Source of the DNA: Candidatus Stercoripulliclostridium sp.
GTDB taxonomy: Bacteria > Bacillota > Clostridia > Christensenellales > DTU072
Assembly: GCA_045577735.1 (NCBI GenBank)
Contig: JAZNIY010000013.1
Location: forward strand, 26,702-90,701
Direction: 5' to 3'
Length of the DNA: 64,000 bases
In this document: positions 36,688 through 42,048 of the stretch, in pieces
Layout: the number at the start of each line of letters is the position of its first letter
Numbering within the stretch: position 1 is the first letter of the stretch
Notes under the pieces: generated by a model
Told to the model about the DNA's origin: nothing
Seen by the model: the letters and a program-made list of their open reading frames with translations, nothing else
Database searches by the model: none
Made by a program: the position numbers and the translations under genes

Positions 36688-37368
36688 ATGATTATCCAAG
36701 GACTACAAAAATTAACCATACTCGATTTCCCGGGACAAGTAGCTTGCATAGTATTTACTGCAGGGTGCTCTTTCCGTTGTCCCTTTTGCCACAATGCAAC
36801 GCTTGTGAAAGGAGAGGGAGAGAATATAAGCGAAGAAGAGGTGCTGGCCTATCTTAAAAAACGCCAAGGAATTTTGGACGGAGTCGTCATAACCGGTGGT
36901 GAGCCAACCATTCAAAAGGACCTAAAAGAATTCATCAAAAAGATTAAGACACTAGGTTACAAGGTAAAACTTGACACCAACGGCTATCATCCCGAAAGGC
37001 TAAAAGAGCTTTTGGACGAGGGGCTTCTCGATTACGTTGCAATGGATATAAAAAACAGCAAAGAGAAGTATGCTTGTACCACTGGGCTACAAAATATAGA
37101 TATTACGCGCATTGAGCAAAGTGTGGAACTCATTAAAAATGGTAACGTACCTTACGAATTTCGCACTACCACAATGGCTGAGTATCATGAAACACAAGAC
37201 TTTGTGGCCATCGAAAAATGGGTAAGTGGCGCAAAAAAATTTTTTATACAATCTTTCAAGGATTCGGGCGATATCTTGTGTGGAAGCTTTACTCCACTAA
37301 ATGAGCAAAAAATGGAAGAATTTCAACAAATTTTGGCTGTTTCGGTGGGGGAAGTGAAAACTCGGTAG
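36688..37368 (+). CDS. nrdG: Anaerobic ribonucleoside-triphosphate reductase activating protein (radical SAM)
   Basis: CSFRCPFCHN (CxxxCxxC radical-SAM cluster) follows LTILDFPGQVACIVFTAGC. ITGGEP SAM-binding motif. Size and context next to nrdD fit. No obvious RBS or promoter of its own. Confidence 0.9.
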   Translation: MIIQGLQKLTILDFPGQVACIVFTAGCSFRCPFCHNATLVKGEGENISEEEVLAYLKKRQGILDGVVITGGEPTIQKDLKEFIKKIKTLGYKVKLDTNGYHPERLKELLDEGLLDYVAMDIKNSKEKYACTTGLQNIDITRIEQSVELIKNGNVPYEFRTTTMAEYHETQDFVAIEKWVSGAKKFFIQSFKDSGDILCGSFTPLNEQKMEEFQQILAVSVGEVKTR

Positions 37369-37444: not shown

Positions 37445-37474
37445 TTGACAGAATGGCGAGTCGTGTAGTAGGAT
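37445..37474 (+). promoter_or_regulatory. Putative nrdD promoter
   Basis: TTGACA at 37445-37450, then 18 nt, then TAGGAT at 37469-37474 (4 of 6 for the -10). AGGAGG RBS at about 37499. Confidence 0.4.
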
Positions 37475-37510: not shown

Positions 37511-39874
37511 ATGTACCAAGTTGTCAATAGAGAAGGCAAAATAGTTGACTTTGATACTAACAAGATTATAGGCGCAATTTCCAAAGCCTTTGATTCATTA
37601 GATAAATATTATAATAGGAGCACCCTTGAGCTTTTGGCTCTTAGAGTTACTGCAGATTTTAACCCCAAGATTAAAGATGGTTTCATCTCCGTTGAAGACA
37701 TCCAAGACAGCGTAGAAACCATTCTTATTCAAGCCGGATATGCAGACGTTGCGAAGGCATATATCCTTTATCGTAAGCAACGTGAAAAAGCACGCAACAT
37801 TCAAGGTACCCTTTTGGATTACAAGAAGGTTATTGATGATTATCTAAGCGTAAGCGACTGGCGTGTTAAGGAAAACAGTACCGTTACCTACTCCGTAGGC
37901 GGACTCATTCTTTCCAACAGTGGCGCAATTACTGCTAACTATTGGCTAAGTGAAGTATATGATGAAGAAATTGCCAACGCACACCGTAAGGCAGACATTC
38001 ACATTCACGATATGAGTATGCTTACCGGATACTGCGCAGGCTGGTCACTAAAACAACTCATCAAAGAGGGACTCGGTGGTGTTACCGGCAAGATTACTTC
38101 TTCTCCCGCACGTCACCTTTCTACTCTATGTAACCAAATGGTTAACTTCCTCGGCATAATGCAAAACGAATGGGCCGGCGCACAAGCATTCAGCTCTTTC
38201 GACACCTATCTTGCTCCCTTTGTAAAGAAGGATAACCTTTCATATTATGAAGTAAAGAAGTGCATTCAAAGCTTCGTCTACGGCGTAAATATTCCCTCTC
38301 GTTGGGGAACTCAAGCACCATTTAGCAACATTACTCTAGACTGGGTTGTTCCAAACGACCTTGCAGAGCTTAACGCTATTGTTGGTGGCGAAGAGCAAGA
38401 CTTTAAATATAAAGATTGTAAGAAGGAAATGGATATGATTAACAAGGCCTTCATCGAAACCATGATTCATGGCGATGCTAACGGCCGTGGTTTCCAATAT
38501 CCCATTCCCACATACTCCATTACCGCAGACTTCGATTGGTCGGAAACCGAAAACAACAAACTTCTTTTCGAAATGACTGCAAAATACGGCACGCCTTACT
38601 TCAGTAACTATATTAACAGCGATATGGAACCAAGTGACGTTCGTTCAATGTGCTGTCGTTTGCGTCTTGACCTTCGCGAACTTCGCAAGAAGAGTGGTGG
38701 TTTCTTTGGCAGTGGCGAATCAACCGGTTCTATCGGTGTTGTAACCATCAATATGCCTAGACTTGCCTACATTGCAAAGGACGAAAAAGACTTCTACGTT
38801 CGTCTTGACAAGATGATGGATATCTCTGCAAGAAGCTTGAAGATTAAACGTGACGTTATCTCCAACTTACTGGAAAACGGACTATATCCCTACACAAAGC
38901 GTTATCTTGACAATCTTGATAATCACTTCTCGACTATCGGCTTGGTAGGTATGAACGAAGCTTGCCTAAATGCAAACTGGATTAGAGCAAACCTAACCGA
39001 AGAAAGAGCAAGAAAATTTGCTATCGAGGTACTAAACCATATGAGAGAAAGATTGTCCGACTACCAAGAAAAATACGGCGACCTTTACAACCTTGAAGCA
39101 ACCCCTGCAGAATCAACCTCTTTCCGTCTTGCAAAGCATGACGTTCAACGTTATCCCGGCATCATTACTGCCGCTAAGTCCAAAGATGACACCCCATACT
39201 ACACCAACAGCTCACACTTGCCCGTAGGATATACCGAAGACGTATTCACCGCTCTTGACCTACAAGACGAATTACACACCCTCTACACCTCCGGTACAGT
39301 ATTCCACGCATATCTTGGTGAGCGTCTACCCAACTGGCAAAGTGCAATGAACCTTGTAAGAAAGATTGCAGAAAACTATCGTCTTCCTTACTATTCAATG
39401 AGCCCTACTTACTCCATCTGTAAAGACCACGGCTATATTAGTGGTGAAGAATATACCTGCCCCATCTGTGGCGAAACCACCGAAGTTTACAGCCGTATCA
39501 CCGGTTACTACCGTCCCGTAAGAAACTGGAACGATGGCAAGAGCCAAGAATTCAAGGATAGAAAGGTATACAATATTTCCAAGTACAATACCCCCCACAG
39601 CCAAGTAGCAGGGGACGTTAAAACCGAGTGCGCTTCCCAAGTAGAAGAGGGCATCACCCTTTACACTACTGCAACTTGCCCTAACTGCAAAATGGTAAAG
39701 ATGCTCCTTGATAAGGCCGGAATTAAGTACGAAACCGTTGTTGCAGATGCATCTACCAAGGCAAGATTTGATGCTCACGAAATCAAGCAAGCCCCCACCC
39801 TTATGGTAAATGGTGCCAAGTACGAAAACGCAAGCAACATCAAGAAGTATATTGAAGATAATAGCGCACGCTAA
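37511..39874 (+). CDS. nrdD: Class III anaerobic ribonucleoside-triphosphate reductase with a fused C-terminal glutaredoxin/NrdH-like domain
   Basis: N-terminal ATP-cone (MYQVVNREGKIVDFDTNKIIGAISKAF). Zn-ribbon CKDHGY...CPICG. Glycyl-radical motif SRITGYYRPV, with the Gly codon at 39503-39505. A ~35-aa linker then leads to ITLYTTATCPNCKMVKMLLDKAGIKYETVV...QAPTLMVNG, a thioredoxin fold with CPNC at 39677-39688 and a cis-Pro-like APT. Confidence 0.9.
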   Translation: MYQVVNREGKIVDFDTNKIIGAISKAFDSLDKYYNRSTLELLALRVTADFNPKIKDGFISVEDIQDSVETILIQAGYADVAKAYILYRKQREKARNIQGTLLDYKKVIDDYLSVSDWRVKENSTVTYSVGGLILSNSGAITANYWLSEVYDEEIANAHRKADIHIHDMSMLTGYCAGWSLKQLIKEGLGGVTGKITSSPARHLSTLCNQMVNFLGIMQNEWAGAQAFSSFDTYLAPFVKKDNLSYYEVKKCIQSFVYGVNIPSRWGTQAPFSNITLDWVVPNDLAELNAIVGGEEQDFKYKDCKKEMDMINKAFIETMIHGDANGRGFQYPIPTYSITADFDWSETENNKLLFEMTAKYGTPYFSNYINSDMEPSDVRSMCCRLRLDLRELRKKSGGFFGSGESTGSIGVVTINMPRLAYIAKDEKDFYVRLDKMMDISARSLKIKRDVISNLLENGLYPYTKRYLDNLDNHFSTIGLVGMNEACLNANWIRANLTEERARKFAIEVLNHMRERLSDYQEKYGDLYNLEATPAESTSFRLAKHDVQRYPGIITAAKSKDDTPYYTNSSHLPVGYTEDVFTALDLQDELHTLYTSGTVFHAYLGERLPNWQSAMNLVRKIAENYRLPYYSMSPTYSICKDHGYISGEEYTCPICGETTEVYSRITGYYRPVRNWNDGKSQEFKDRKVYNISKYNTPHSQVAGDVKTECASQVEEGITLYTTATCPNCKMVKMLLDKAGIKYETVVADASTKARFDAHEIKQAPTLMVNGAKYENASNIKKYIEDNSAR

Positions 39875-39933: not shown

Positions 39934-40857
39934 ATGAATTACGATTACGATATTATAGTTATTGGTGCAGGTGCTAGTGGTATGACGTCTGCTCTTTATG
40001 CCCTTCGTGGTGGCAAGAACGTGCTCATCATAGAAAAAGAAACGGTGGGTGGACAAATCTCATTTTCGCCCAGAGTTGAAAATTTCCCCACCATCAAGGA
40101 AATAAGCGGACAAGACCTTAGCGACCGCTTATTTGACCAAATAATGGACCAGGGAGTGGCTTTTGAGCTCGAAACAGTAGAGAAAATTGAAAAGTTAGAA
40201 GAGAAGGGCTTTAAGGTTACCACCGACTACCATACCTATACTGCAAAAGCGGTTATTATTGCAGCGGGAGTAAAGCATCGTCATTTGGGCCTTCCTCGTG
40301 AGCAAGAATTTATTGGTAGGGGCGTTTATTATTGTGCTCTTTGTGACGGTGCATTCTATGAAAACCAAGAAGTAACCCTAATAGGGGACGGCAACTCTGC
40401 GCTCCAATATGCACTTTACCTTTCCAATATTTGTTCCAAAGTTACGGTTGTAACGCTATTTGATTACTTTGCAGGCGAGCCCATGCTTGTAAATCGCCTT
40501 AAAGAGCGCGCTAACGTAGAAATCATTATGGGCTATGCTTCCACCTCATTTTTAGGTGAAGACAAGTTTGAGGGAATAGCTTTCAAAGAAACCTATGGCG
40601 ACAAGACTATGGAAATTAGAAATAGTGCTGTATTCGTAGCAATAGGTCAAGTGCCCGATAATAAGAAATATGAAAATTTAGTAGAGCTCGATAAACAAGG
40701 CTTCATTGTAGCCGGTGAAGATACTTTTACCAAAACCGAAGGCATCTATGCCGCCGGCGACTGTCGTACCAAGAGCGTACGCCAACTCACCACAGCTGTA
40801 GGCGACGGAGCCAACGCGGCGATAGGGGCTTGTGCTTATATTGATCGCACCTTCTAA
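39934..40857 (+). CDS. Low-molecular-weight thioredoxin-reductase-like flavoprotein (CxxC present, NADPH HRRxxxR motif absent)
   Basis: FAD motif DIIVIGAGASGMTSA. Redox-active CALCDG at 40333-40344. Second dinucleotide motif GDGNSA. Where E. coli-type TrxB has HRRDxFRA, this protein has TLFDYFAG (40453-40476). C-terminal FAD motif GIYAAGDC. Confidence 0.8.
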   Translation: MNYDYDIIVIGAGASGMTSALYALRGGKNVLIIEKETVGGQISFSPRVENFPTIKEISGQDLSDRLFDQIMDQGVAFELETVEKIEKLEEKGFKVTTDYHTYTAKAVIIAAGVKHRHLGLPREQEFIGRGVYYCALCDGAFYENQEVTLIGDGNSALQYALYLSNICSKVTVVTLFDYFAGEPMLVNRLKERANVEIIMGYASTSFLGEDKFEGIAFKETYGDKTMEIRNSAVFVAIGQVPDNKKYENLVELDKQGFIVAGEDTFTKTEGIYAAGDCRTKSVRQLTTAVGDGANAAIGACAYIDRTF

Positions 40858-41211: not shown

Positions 41212-42048
41212 TTAATTAGAAATAATATTTATTGGGTTTCTAAGTTTGGTAATGTTTATTCCTATCGTTTTGTCGATATCATATTTTTCGCCGTCTACAC
41301 AAAATGGAGTAGGGGAAAGTAACTCAAGATCAACGTGCTTAAAAGGGGTGAAAAGAATATTCTTGCTTTTGTAAGGCTTGTTGAACCCGATGAAAAAGGC
41401 ACGGAAAAAGGGGAAAAAGATTTTAATTTTGTTAAGCAACGTATCCTTCCCGGGGCTCTTGATGGTAAGTAGACACATTTCGCCTTTGTTGTAAAGCCTA
41501 TTAAAGTTAAAGCCAAAACACCTCGGTGAGTTTATTAGCATAATTAGTGTGTACTCGCCGTCGGTTATAGAGCCGTCAACGTTCATTCTCGCCCAAATAT
41601 CATTTACTTTGTACTCTTTTACCACCTTGCTGATATAGGCAAGGGCTTTGAATCTTTTTTTGCTTTTTGTGTTTACGGCATAGCCTAACGGCGTGAATGT
41701 GCCGGTTGCGCAAACGTAGCTAAAAAGTATGTCTCCGGCGTGTCCAACGAGGTTGAGGGTGCTTTCGTTTTGTGCGTTATAGACCTCGTTGAGAGTGCCA
41801 CAAGGCACGTAATATAAGGCGGTGCGATCGGGAATAGAGGTGTTGATAATATGGTTTAACGTGCCGTCGCCACCGCACACGGCAACCCCTTCGTAGTCCT
41901 CCATTTTTATGTTTTCCAAATCTTCCGGGATATATTTTACCTCGAATTTTTGGTAGCGTGAGGACAGCCTCTCTTTAAGGCTTTCTAGGTTGAGGGCTTC
42001 GGCGTTGCCGGAAAGTTTGTTAATAACTATTAGACAATCATTTTTCAT
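41212..42048 (-). CDS. Diacylglycerol-kinase-family lipid kinase (DagK/YegS-like)
   Basis: The catalytic-domain motif VAVCGGDGTLNHIIN (GGDGT) follows an N-terminal LIVINKLSGN strand. At 278 aa it is typical for soluble DAGK_cat proteins. Confidence 0.8.
   Translation of the reverse strand: MKNDCLIVINKLSGNAEALNLESLKERLSSRYQKFEVKYIPEDLENIKMEDYEGVAVCGGDGTLNHIINTSIPDRTALYYVPCGTLNEVYNAQNESTLNLVGHAGDILFSYVCATGTFTPLGYAVNTKSKKRFKALAYISKVVKEYKVNDIWARMNVDGSITDGEYTLIMLINSPRCFGFNFNRLYNKGEMCLLTIKSPGKDTLLNKIKIFFPFFRAFFIGFNKPYKSKNILFTPFKHVDLELLSPTPFCVDGEKYDIDKTIGINITKLRNPINIISN

Follow-up and report, generated by a model that had tools for sequence, protein, structure and literature searches.

The question raised by a gene of Candidatus Stercoripulliclostridium sp. 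(Bacillota; Clostridia; Christensenellales) is where a thioredoxin reductase (TrxR) that lacks its NADPH-binding motif obtains its electrons. The gene, trxB-like and coding for a flavoprotein disulfide reductase of 307 aa (P0001), occupies positions 39934..40857 of the window, which is the whole 64,000-nucleotide stretch of DNA analysed (assembly GCA_045577735.1, contig JAZNIY010000013.1, positions 26,702 to 90,701); it and the features described below are on the + strand unless stated. It begins 59 nt behind nrdD, the gene for a class III ribonucleotide reductase (RNR) to which a glutaredoxin (Grx) domain is fused. An earlier note on this DNA had pointed to TLFDYFAG at the position where TrxRs of low relative molecular mass (low-Mr TrxRs) have HRRDxFRA, and had proposed that the electron donor is probably not NADPH. 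As set out here, P0001 belongs to a widespread class, named TLFD after this replacement, whose members are probably low-Mr TrxRs that have moved off NADPH and are private to a redoxin-tethered class III RNR; the sequence makes it highly probable that P0001 is not NADPH-specific.

Pfam assigns P0001 to Pyr_redox_2 (8.7e-39), and its AlphaFold2 model, with a predicted local distance difference test (pLDDT) score of 89, matches the solved NADPH-dependent thioredoxin reductases (NTRs) 4gcm, 7aaw and 2q7v at a template modelling (TM) score of 0.91; the predicted structure is a low-Mr TrxR fold with two Rossmann-type domains. The FAD-binding GxGxxG is GAGASG (39964..39981, residues 11-16), with G11, G13 and G16 invariant in the class, and the redox disulfide followed by Asp-Gly is CALCDG (40333..40350, residues 134-139), with C134, C137, D138 and G139 invariant. 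Just upstream of CALC lies the redoxin-docking GRG (residues 128-130; G128 and G130 invariant in the class), and P0001 thus has the CxxC and the acid-catalyst Asp in the nucleotide domain together with G[RK]G. The second FAD motif (GD..RQ) is also present, as GIYAAGDC at residues 270-277 (AAGDCRTKSVRQ). The NCBIfam equivalog model for TrxR, TIGR01292, scores P0001 at 300.7 bits, below its cut-off of 343.45.

The loop that binds the 2'-phosphate of NADPH, HRRDxFRAE, is replaced by TLFDYFAGE (40453..40479), of which TLFDYFAG makes up residues 174-181 (40453-40476); the placement given in the earlier note is confirmed by gap-free BLASTP and HMMER alignments. In the HMMER alignment to solved NTRs, VTLFDYFAGEPML of P0001 stands opposite VHRRDHLKAARVL of 4zn0 and VHRRDELRAQRIL of 4gcm, and in BLASTP against TrxB of E. 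coli MG1655 (36% identity) TLFDYFAGE pairs with HRRDGFRAE without a gap, so that TLFDYFAG occupies the aligned positions of HRRxxxR. In E. coli TrxB numbering, T174 corresponds to H175, L175 to R176, F176 to R177, D177 to D178 and A180 to R181; all four ligands of the 2'-phosphate (H175, R176, R177 and R181) have given way to uncharged, mostly hydrophobic residues. The Arg motif has not simply shifted while being conserved, the outcome that the earlier note had named as fatal to its proposal, since residues 170 to 187 of the translation include no Arg, Lys or His. Comparison with both E. coli TrxB and an orthologue of the flavin thioredoxin reductase that depends on ferredoxin (FFTR) bore out the loss of the HRR site and placed P0001 closer to the NTRs.

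The glycine loop of the same domain is altered as well. The loop and the helix start read GDGNSALQY (40384..40410; GDGNSA, residues 151-156), where E. coli TrxB has GGGNTAVEE. Among 55 sequences of the TLFD class, loop position x1 is Asp (D152) in 53, the middle Gly of GxGxxA has become Ala in 37, and the two Glu that follow the loop in NTRs are Gln-Tyr (Q158 and Y159, each in 54 of the 55), while Gly151, Asn154 and Ala156 are invariant. The class consensus, G-D-[A/G]-N-[T/S]-A-L-Q-Y, thus departs from the GGGxxAxE of NTRs. The FAD motifs and CALCDG listed in the earlier note stand, but GDGNSA is not the normal dinucleotide loop for which it had been taken.

Both changes are shared across the class. 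All 120 best database homologues of P0001 (57-99% identity) carry T[LM]FD..F[FA][GA][DE], and the class comprises no fewer than 55 sequences at species level, whose pairwise identity has a median of 52% and a minimum of 40%; since the replacement is kept in both sets, chance or sequencing error does not explain it. Over the 55 sequences the replacement motif ranks above 97% of 9-column windows in conservation, with the altered loop higher still. Such a pattern is the signature of a functional site rather than of a decaying pocket, and the motif is, judging from this conservation, under strong purifying selection. Tyr178 and Ala180 mark the sub-lineage of P0001; in most members of the class, position 178 is Lys or Arg and position 180 is Phe, L030 being an orthologue with Lys178 and Phe180. 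Scanning one genome per GTDB species gave 595 relatives, the best 80 of which were examined for taxonomy and loci. These 80 come from metagenome-assembled genomes of gut and rumen, and are assigned to Christensenellaceae, other Clostridia, Oscillospiraceae, Acutalibacteraceae, Erysipelotrichaceae-like Bacilli, Lentisphaeria and a few other taxa.

The genomic setting of the TLFD genes is also conserved. In the window, nrdD (37511..39874; NF006126, 1124 bits; Pfam NRDD, ATP-cone and Glutaredoxin) encodes an ATP-cone, the class III core with the finger loop SMCCR, and the C-terminal glutaredoxin-like domain. This last domain, glutaredoxin/NrdH-like (residues 715-768, 39653..39814; PF00462, 6.4e-09), has the redox motif CPNC and is presumed to be the direct substrate of the reductase. 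The + strand between nrdD and the trxB-like gene showed no terminator-like site, and the best sigma-70-like match upstream of nrdD, TTGACA-18-TAGGAT at 37445..37474 (10/12 positions, a consensus match only), is a candidate promoter that probably drives both genes. Among the 80 related loci, 72 have the nrdD core and Grx domain immediately upstream on the same strand; for six of the remaining eight, fewer than 330 nt are available upstream, and the other two, the real exceptions, are of another motif class. Every TLFD locus with enough upstream sequence (53 of 53, counting six further genes from the order of the window) lies behind nrdD::grx. When the open reading frames of 87 loci were clustered, in search of a donor gene near the module, only the reductase, NrdD-Grx and the radical-SAM activase NrdG recurred.

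The phylogeny indicates what kind of enzyme preceded the TLFD class. Trees were built with IQ-TREE (short search) from the NrdD-linked genes, TrxR homologues taken from 41 same-order genomes, and E. coli TrxB; the FFTR reference was a same-order orthologue (L139; 274 bits to 6gna). One clade (support 97-98) holds all NrdD-linked reductases, and within it three motif classes can be told apart. HRR members, with GGGxxA and HRRD.FR, stand at its base and inside it; four of them (L084, L060, L052 and L137) lie behind nrdD-Grx, and an unlinked one (L119) is basal. The QNL class has GGGN[ST]ALQE and QNL..TGE, and is a candidate for an NADH-type switch on these motifs. The 51 TLFD sequences form one clade with support 99 when the motif columns are removed. 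The backbone between the three groups lacks resolution, so that HRR may have been lost once or twice; FFTR-like sequences fall outside the clade of NTRs and NrdD-linked enzymes.

On the side of the partner, CPNC is kept in 57 of 59 full-length NrdD-Grx proteins, beside all three classes of TrxR, and the SMCCR finger loop is identical beside HRR, QNL and TLFD reductases; the acceptor side therefore appears constant, and only the electron-input side has changed. Moreover, HRR relatives in the same clade serve the same NrdD-Grx partner, which argues for a switch of donor rather than decay. The best explanation of these relationships is that the TLFD class descends from an NrdD-dedicated NADPH-thioredoxin reductase. 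The earlier proposal that the donor is probably not NADPH thus gains support from the loss of all four ligands, from purifying selection and from the HRR relatives that work on the same partner.

The gene content of the genome adds to the picture. The genome of the window (G000; 1.96 Mb, 97.6% complete) has a single full-length TrxR homologue, P0001, and NrdD::Grx is the only RNR found in it; neither a class I or II RNR large subunit nor pyruvate formate-lyase (PFL) was found at this completeness. De novo deoxynucleoside triphosphate (dNTP) synthesis, and probably thioredoxin recycling, would thus depend on P0001. The adjacent finger-loop Cys, the fused CPNC Grx domain, the adjoining TrxR-like gene and the lack of PFL fit a redoxin-dependent (NrdD2-like) class III RNR. 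The genome has pyruvate:ferredoxin oxidoreductase (PFOR), one 57-aa 2x[4Fe-4S] clostridial ferredoxin (L144:219-389; 310118-310291 of contig C8) and one canonical WCGPC thioredoxin, TrxA (L089:1480-1809; 78168-78497 of contig C4). The sole match to an Fe-S reductase of the ferredoxin:thioredoxin reductase (FTR) type has 21.5 bits and is broken by a stop codon, and a reductase of the FTR or ferredoxin:disulfide reductase (FDR) type was rejected as an alternative reducer of thioredoxin. A search limited to PF00258 found no stand-alone flavodoxin, its one match being of 20 bits and inside a 600-aa frame, and flavodoxin was rejected as donor; the earlier note was nevertheless right to leave ferredoxin, flavodoxin and NADH undecided.

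Other genomes show how the TLFD gene coexists with further TrxRs. In the same-order sample, five of seven TLFD-bearing genomes keep an ordinary HRR NTR too, which fits the TLFD enzyme being a paralogue fed from a different source. None of five small Bacilli genomes has a TrxR homologue that attains the NTR cut-off, and HRR is missing from most second copies too. Three of the second homologues in TLFD-bearing Bacilli (L146, L147 and L148, in genomes G043, G041 and G044) read SHNALFKA, NPDKELVG and YPQP-IEA, respectively, and in two of these genomes the second TrxR gene lies some 5-12 kb downstream of PFOR; all three genomes may be without any NADPH-linked TrxR.

From these findings a route of electrons can be proposed. 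P0001 would be a functional FAD- and dithiol-dependent redoxin reductase, co-transcribed with nrdD, that reduces the tethered CPNC domain, which in turn would re-reduce the Cys pair of NrdD; it would probably also recycle the single WCGPC thioredoxin of the genome. Its nucleotide pocket appears remodelled (HRR..R to TLF..[F/A], GGG to G-D-[A/G] and EE to QY) such that NADPH would no longer be used. In the version favoured here P0001 would bind no pyridine dinucleotide and would take its electrons from a protein of low potential, the most plausible being the 2x[4Fe-4S] ferredoxin that PFOR charges. That the donor is ferredoxin or another protein, dinucleotide binding being lost, is suggested by the Gly-to-Ala change in the loop, the adjoining Asp, the hydrophobic and aromatic fill of the adenosine and 2'-phosphate site, and the parallel with DvTRi of Desulfovibrio vulgaris; it is put forward tentatively, at a little under an even chance. 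The overall account, an NrdD-dedicated reductase off NADPH with a protein as preferred donor, is the best explanation of the data and is likewise held with somewhat less than even confidence.

Several observations weigh against this account. The nucleotide domain of P0001 is full length, without deletions, and keeps the FVAIGQ strand, unlike that of FFTR, from which this strand is lost; these features and the invariant loop residues Gly151, Asn154 and Ala156 would fit a retained capacity to bind a dinucleotide such as NADH. The Lys or Arg found at position 178 in 50 of 55 members could touch phosphate, although P0001 has Tyr there. Among the 87 loci no ferredoxin, flavodoxin or rubredoxin gene recurs beside the module, and since PFOR is present in all five TLFD-bearing small Bacilli genomes checked, its presence does not discriminate between donors. 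There is also a precedent for caution: the TrxR of T. acidophilum, which lacks HRRxxxR, was at first described as independent of pyridine nucleotides, and NADH use was demonstrated only later (PMC6262447).

The competing readings draw on the same residues. P0001 could be an NADH-dependent redoxin reductase in which the Leu and Phe that replace Arg exclude the 2'-phosphate while the ADP-ribose of NADH is still bound; the full-length nucleotide domain, which is closest to the NADPH domains of NTRs, the invariance of the G-x-x-N-x-A part of the loop and of the FVAIGQ strand, the precedent of NADH use in TaTR, TmTR and DvTR3, and the sister QNL class, which with an intact GGGN[ST]A loop and HRR alone lost looks like a plain NADPH-to-NADH switch, are all in keeping with this. 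It is nevertheless rated somewhat less likely than a protein donor, in that two thirds of the class have Ala for the middle Gly of the pyrophosphate loop, with an Asp introduced beside it, and the end of strand beta-2 lacks an acidic residue, NADH-preferring AhpF having Glu where P0001 has Thr174. The Asp of TLFD, which the earlier note had held to be compatible with NADH, is not diagnostic: it corresponds to the Asp of HRRD (D178 of NADPH enzymes), several close relatives have Asn in its place, and the acid position that classically determines NADH use is that of Thr174. Continued dependence on NADPH, with the 2'-phosphate bound through other residues, might be read from the Lys or Arg that most of the class has at 178, from Lys at 168-169 and from the label 'thioredoxin reductase (NADPH)' that public annotation pipelines give to some members. 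P0001 itself has Tyr178, no basic residue within 170-187 and none of the four canonical ligands; a single Lys in the loop of DvTRi did not rescue NADPH use (PMC5627308), HRR orthologues in the same clade mark the loss as a specific, selected change, and the TIGR01292 score is under the equivalog cut-off, all of which makes this reading improbable.

Membership of P0001 in the known clostridial FFTRs has the superficial attraction that HRRxxxR is missing, that the host is a member of the Clostridia with PFOR and ferredoxin, that the GDC motif after the FAD-binding GD is shared with FFTR, and that clostridial non-NTR TrxBs have been lumped in the literature as 'probably FFTR' (PMC10880999). It was rejected and can be regarded as very improbable: P0001 scores 111 bits against 6gna and 206 bits against NTRs, is only 27% identical to the FFTR orthologue L139 and has a full-length nucleotide domain, whereas FFTR has VGYNKEAE and PRYKDE with deletions in that domain; the present tree, in which FFTR-like sequences branch separately, outside the NTR and NrdD-linked clade, speaks against it too. 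Membership in the DvTRi type was likewise rejected, the motif being TLFD rather than TQ/NGK and the match a weak 96.7 bits.

It is the electron source of P0001 that determines how the making of DNA precursors, and probably general thiol repair as well, is tied to fermentation. If the preferred reading, that of a protein donor, is true, dNTP synthesis would be wired directly to the PFOR/ferredoxin pool instead of to NADPH, and so would all thioredoxin-dependent thiol reduction in the genome of the window. A wider proposal, still more tentative than the protein donor itself, is that the TLFD class may be a new pyridine-nucleotide-independent TrxR lineage, which arose, separately from FFTR, DTR and TRi, out of an NTR dedicated to NrdD, in which a conserved aromatic patch (Y159, L175, F176, F179 and F180) would serve as the docking or electron-entry site for ferredoxin and by which dNTP synthesis in hundreds of species of gut anaerobes would run on the PFOR/ferredoxin pool. 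The module is found in hundreds of uncultured species from gut and rumen, among Christensenellales, Oscillospirales, Erysipelotrichaceae-like Bacilli and Lentisphaeria, and its HRR, QNL and TLFD versions on one NrdD-Grx partner offer a ready comparison for how cofactor specificity is rewritten in low-Mr TrxRs. TLFD genes should not be annotated as 'thioredoxin reductase (NADPH)', nor as FFTR where the absence of the motif is the sole ground; the class fits poorly under the 'probably FFTR' label for clostridial non-NTR TrxBs. A literature search found no paper on the module of NrdD-Grx and a TrxR-like protein or on the TLFD motif; new here are the three motif classes in one NrdD-linked clade, the argument from the position of the Asp, the degraded Gly loop and the status of P0001 and NrdD::Grx as sole TrxR and sole RNR.

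The module itself is apparently mobile. The NrdD of the window shows 74-86% identity to NrdDs of other orders and phyla; identity is only 48% to L150 (G034:C24:311-2428), the Grx-less NrdD of a same-family genome that also has a canonical NTR elsewhere. Being closer to the NrdDs of other orders and phyla than to that of its own family, the NrdD of the window suggests that the nrdD::grx-trxB module was acquired horizontally and moves between phyla. The match at L150 is interrupted by three TAA stops.

The neighbourhood and the wider family yield further observations. Upstream of nrdD lies nrdG (36688..37368; TIGR02495 NrdG2, 222 bits against a cut-off of 131; Pfam Radical_SAM and Fer4_12), the gene for the radical-SAM activase of the class III RNR; beyond the reductase gene, on the - strand at 41212-42048, is a convergent gene for a 278-aa protein with the diacylglycerol/lipid kinase catalytic domain DAGK_cat (1.4e-10) that falls far short of the cut-offs set for YegS/BmrU lipid kinase models. 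The TrxA gene overlaps the end of a gene for a 145-aa membrane protein (L089:1053-1490) and has no reductase gene nearby; the 417-aa open reading frame that follows it resembles, judging from its sequence, serine hydroxymethyltransferase (glyA). QNL loci, among them L045, L063, L066, L077, L059 and L068, have QNL[DAGPS]xxTGE with an intact Gly loop and without HRR, in hosts from Oscillospiraceae, Acutalibacteraceae and Lentisphaeria. Directly after the FAD-binding GD, P0001 has a Cys (Cys277, 40762-40764, in AAGDCRTK) that is kept across the NrdD-linked clade (51/55 TLFD sequences, 29/29 QNL sequences and HRR members too); a Cys stands there in FFTR as well (GDCTG), and most ordinary NTRs have Val or Ile. 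Five long TrxR-like representatives (P0130, P0136, P0137, P0141 and P0207; 383-471 aa), with a GNAT domain or no extra Pfam domain, were set aside as not relevant; P0137 and P0141 are HRR-type relatives of 444-471 aa, one of which ends in a C-terminal GNAT acetyltransferase domain that could be a real fusion or a read-through of gene calling.

Among known systems, the NTRs (E. coli 1TDE/1F6M, S. aureus 4GCM and B. cereus 7AAW) share with P0001 the fold (TM 0.91; identity 33-36%), the FAD-binding GxGxxG, the CxxC-Asp in the nucleotide domain, the GRG docking motif and GD..RQ. The TLFD class branches within an NTR clade but differs from these enzymes by TLFDxF[F/A]G for HRRxxxR, G-D-[A/G] for GGG and QY for EE, and whereas NTR genes are free-standing the TLFD gene is fixed behind nrdD::grx. 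The NADH-preferring AhpF of E. coli combines GGGNSG with LLEFAPEMKA, where P0001 has GDGNSA and VVTLFDYFAG; P0001 thus has neither the intact GGG nor the acid at the end of strand beta-2, a rule of thumb that is not proof against NADH.

Low-Mr TrxRs that are independent of NADPH include FFTR and DTR, which use ferredoxin, DvTRi, whose donor is unidentified, DFTR, which uses F420, and the NADH-dependent TaTR, TmTR and DvTR3 (PMC5627308, PMC6262447, PMC10880999). FFTR (6GNA/6GNC/6GND) resembles P0001 as a low-Mr TrxR homologue that lacks the NADPH motifs in ferredoxin-rich anaerobes, and can serve as a working model for how P0001 would be reduced; its nucleotide domain is shortened and degenerate (about 288 aa), whereas P0001 has a full-length domain with a strictly conserved replacement and a separate origin. 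DvTRi (5NII) was not reduced by NAD(P)H in assays, and has GEGxxAxN with Thr at the position of the His (PMC5627308); this Thr in place of His175, an acidic x1 in the Gly loop and an amide for Glu159 are common to it and P0001. The two differ in motif (TQ/NGK against TLFD), in the pyrophosphate loop, degenerate in DvTRi and strongly conserved here, and in setting, the TRi gene being monocistronic and without a link to RNR.

Class III RNRs are grouped by reductant into NrdD1, with formate, NrdD2, with thioredoxin, and NrdD3, with NrdH and an Fe-S ferredoxin:disulfide reductase (PMC9176816); in 2018, RefSeq held one grx::nrdD fusion (PMC6187632). As summarised in PMC9669993 and PMC9176816, the thioredoxin-dependent NrdD2 type (Wei et al., 2014) of Neisseria bacilliformis and T. 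maritima resembles the present system in its adjacent finger-loop Cys, in a thiol redoxin instead of formate and in a genome without PFL. In the system of the window the finger loop keeps the Met (SMCCR), a CPNC Grx/NrdH-like domain fused to NrdD serves as redoxin, and the reductase is a private paralogue without the NADPH site. The NrdD3-type RNR of Methanosarcina barkeri is fed by a ferredoxin:disulfide reductase and NrdH (Wei et al., 2015, as cited in PMC9176816 and PMC6262447) and sets a precedent for charging the redoxin of a class III RNR from ferredoxin and not from NADPH, by an Fe-S enzyme of the FTR type there and, if ferredoxin is indeed the donor, by a flavoprotein in P0001.

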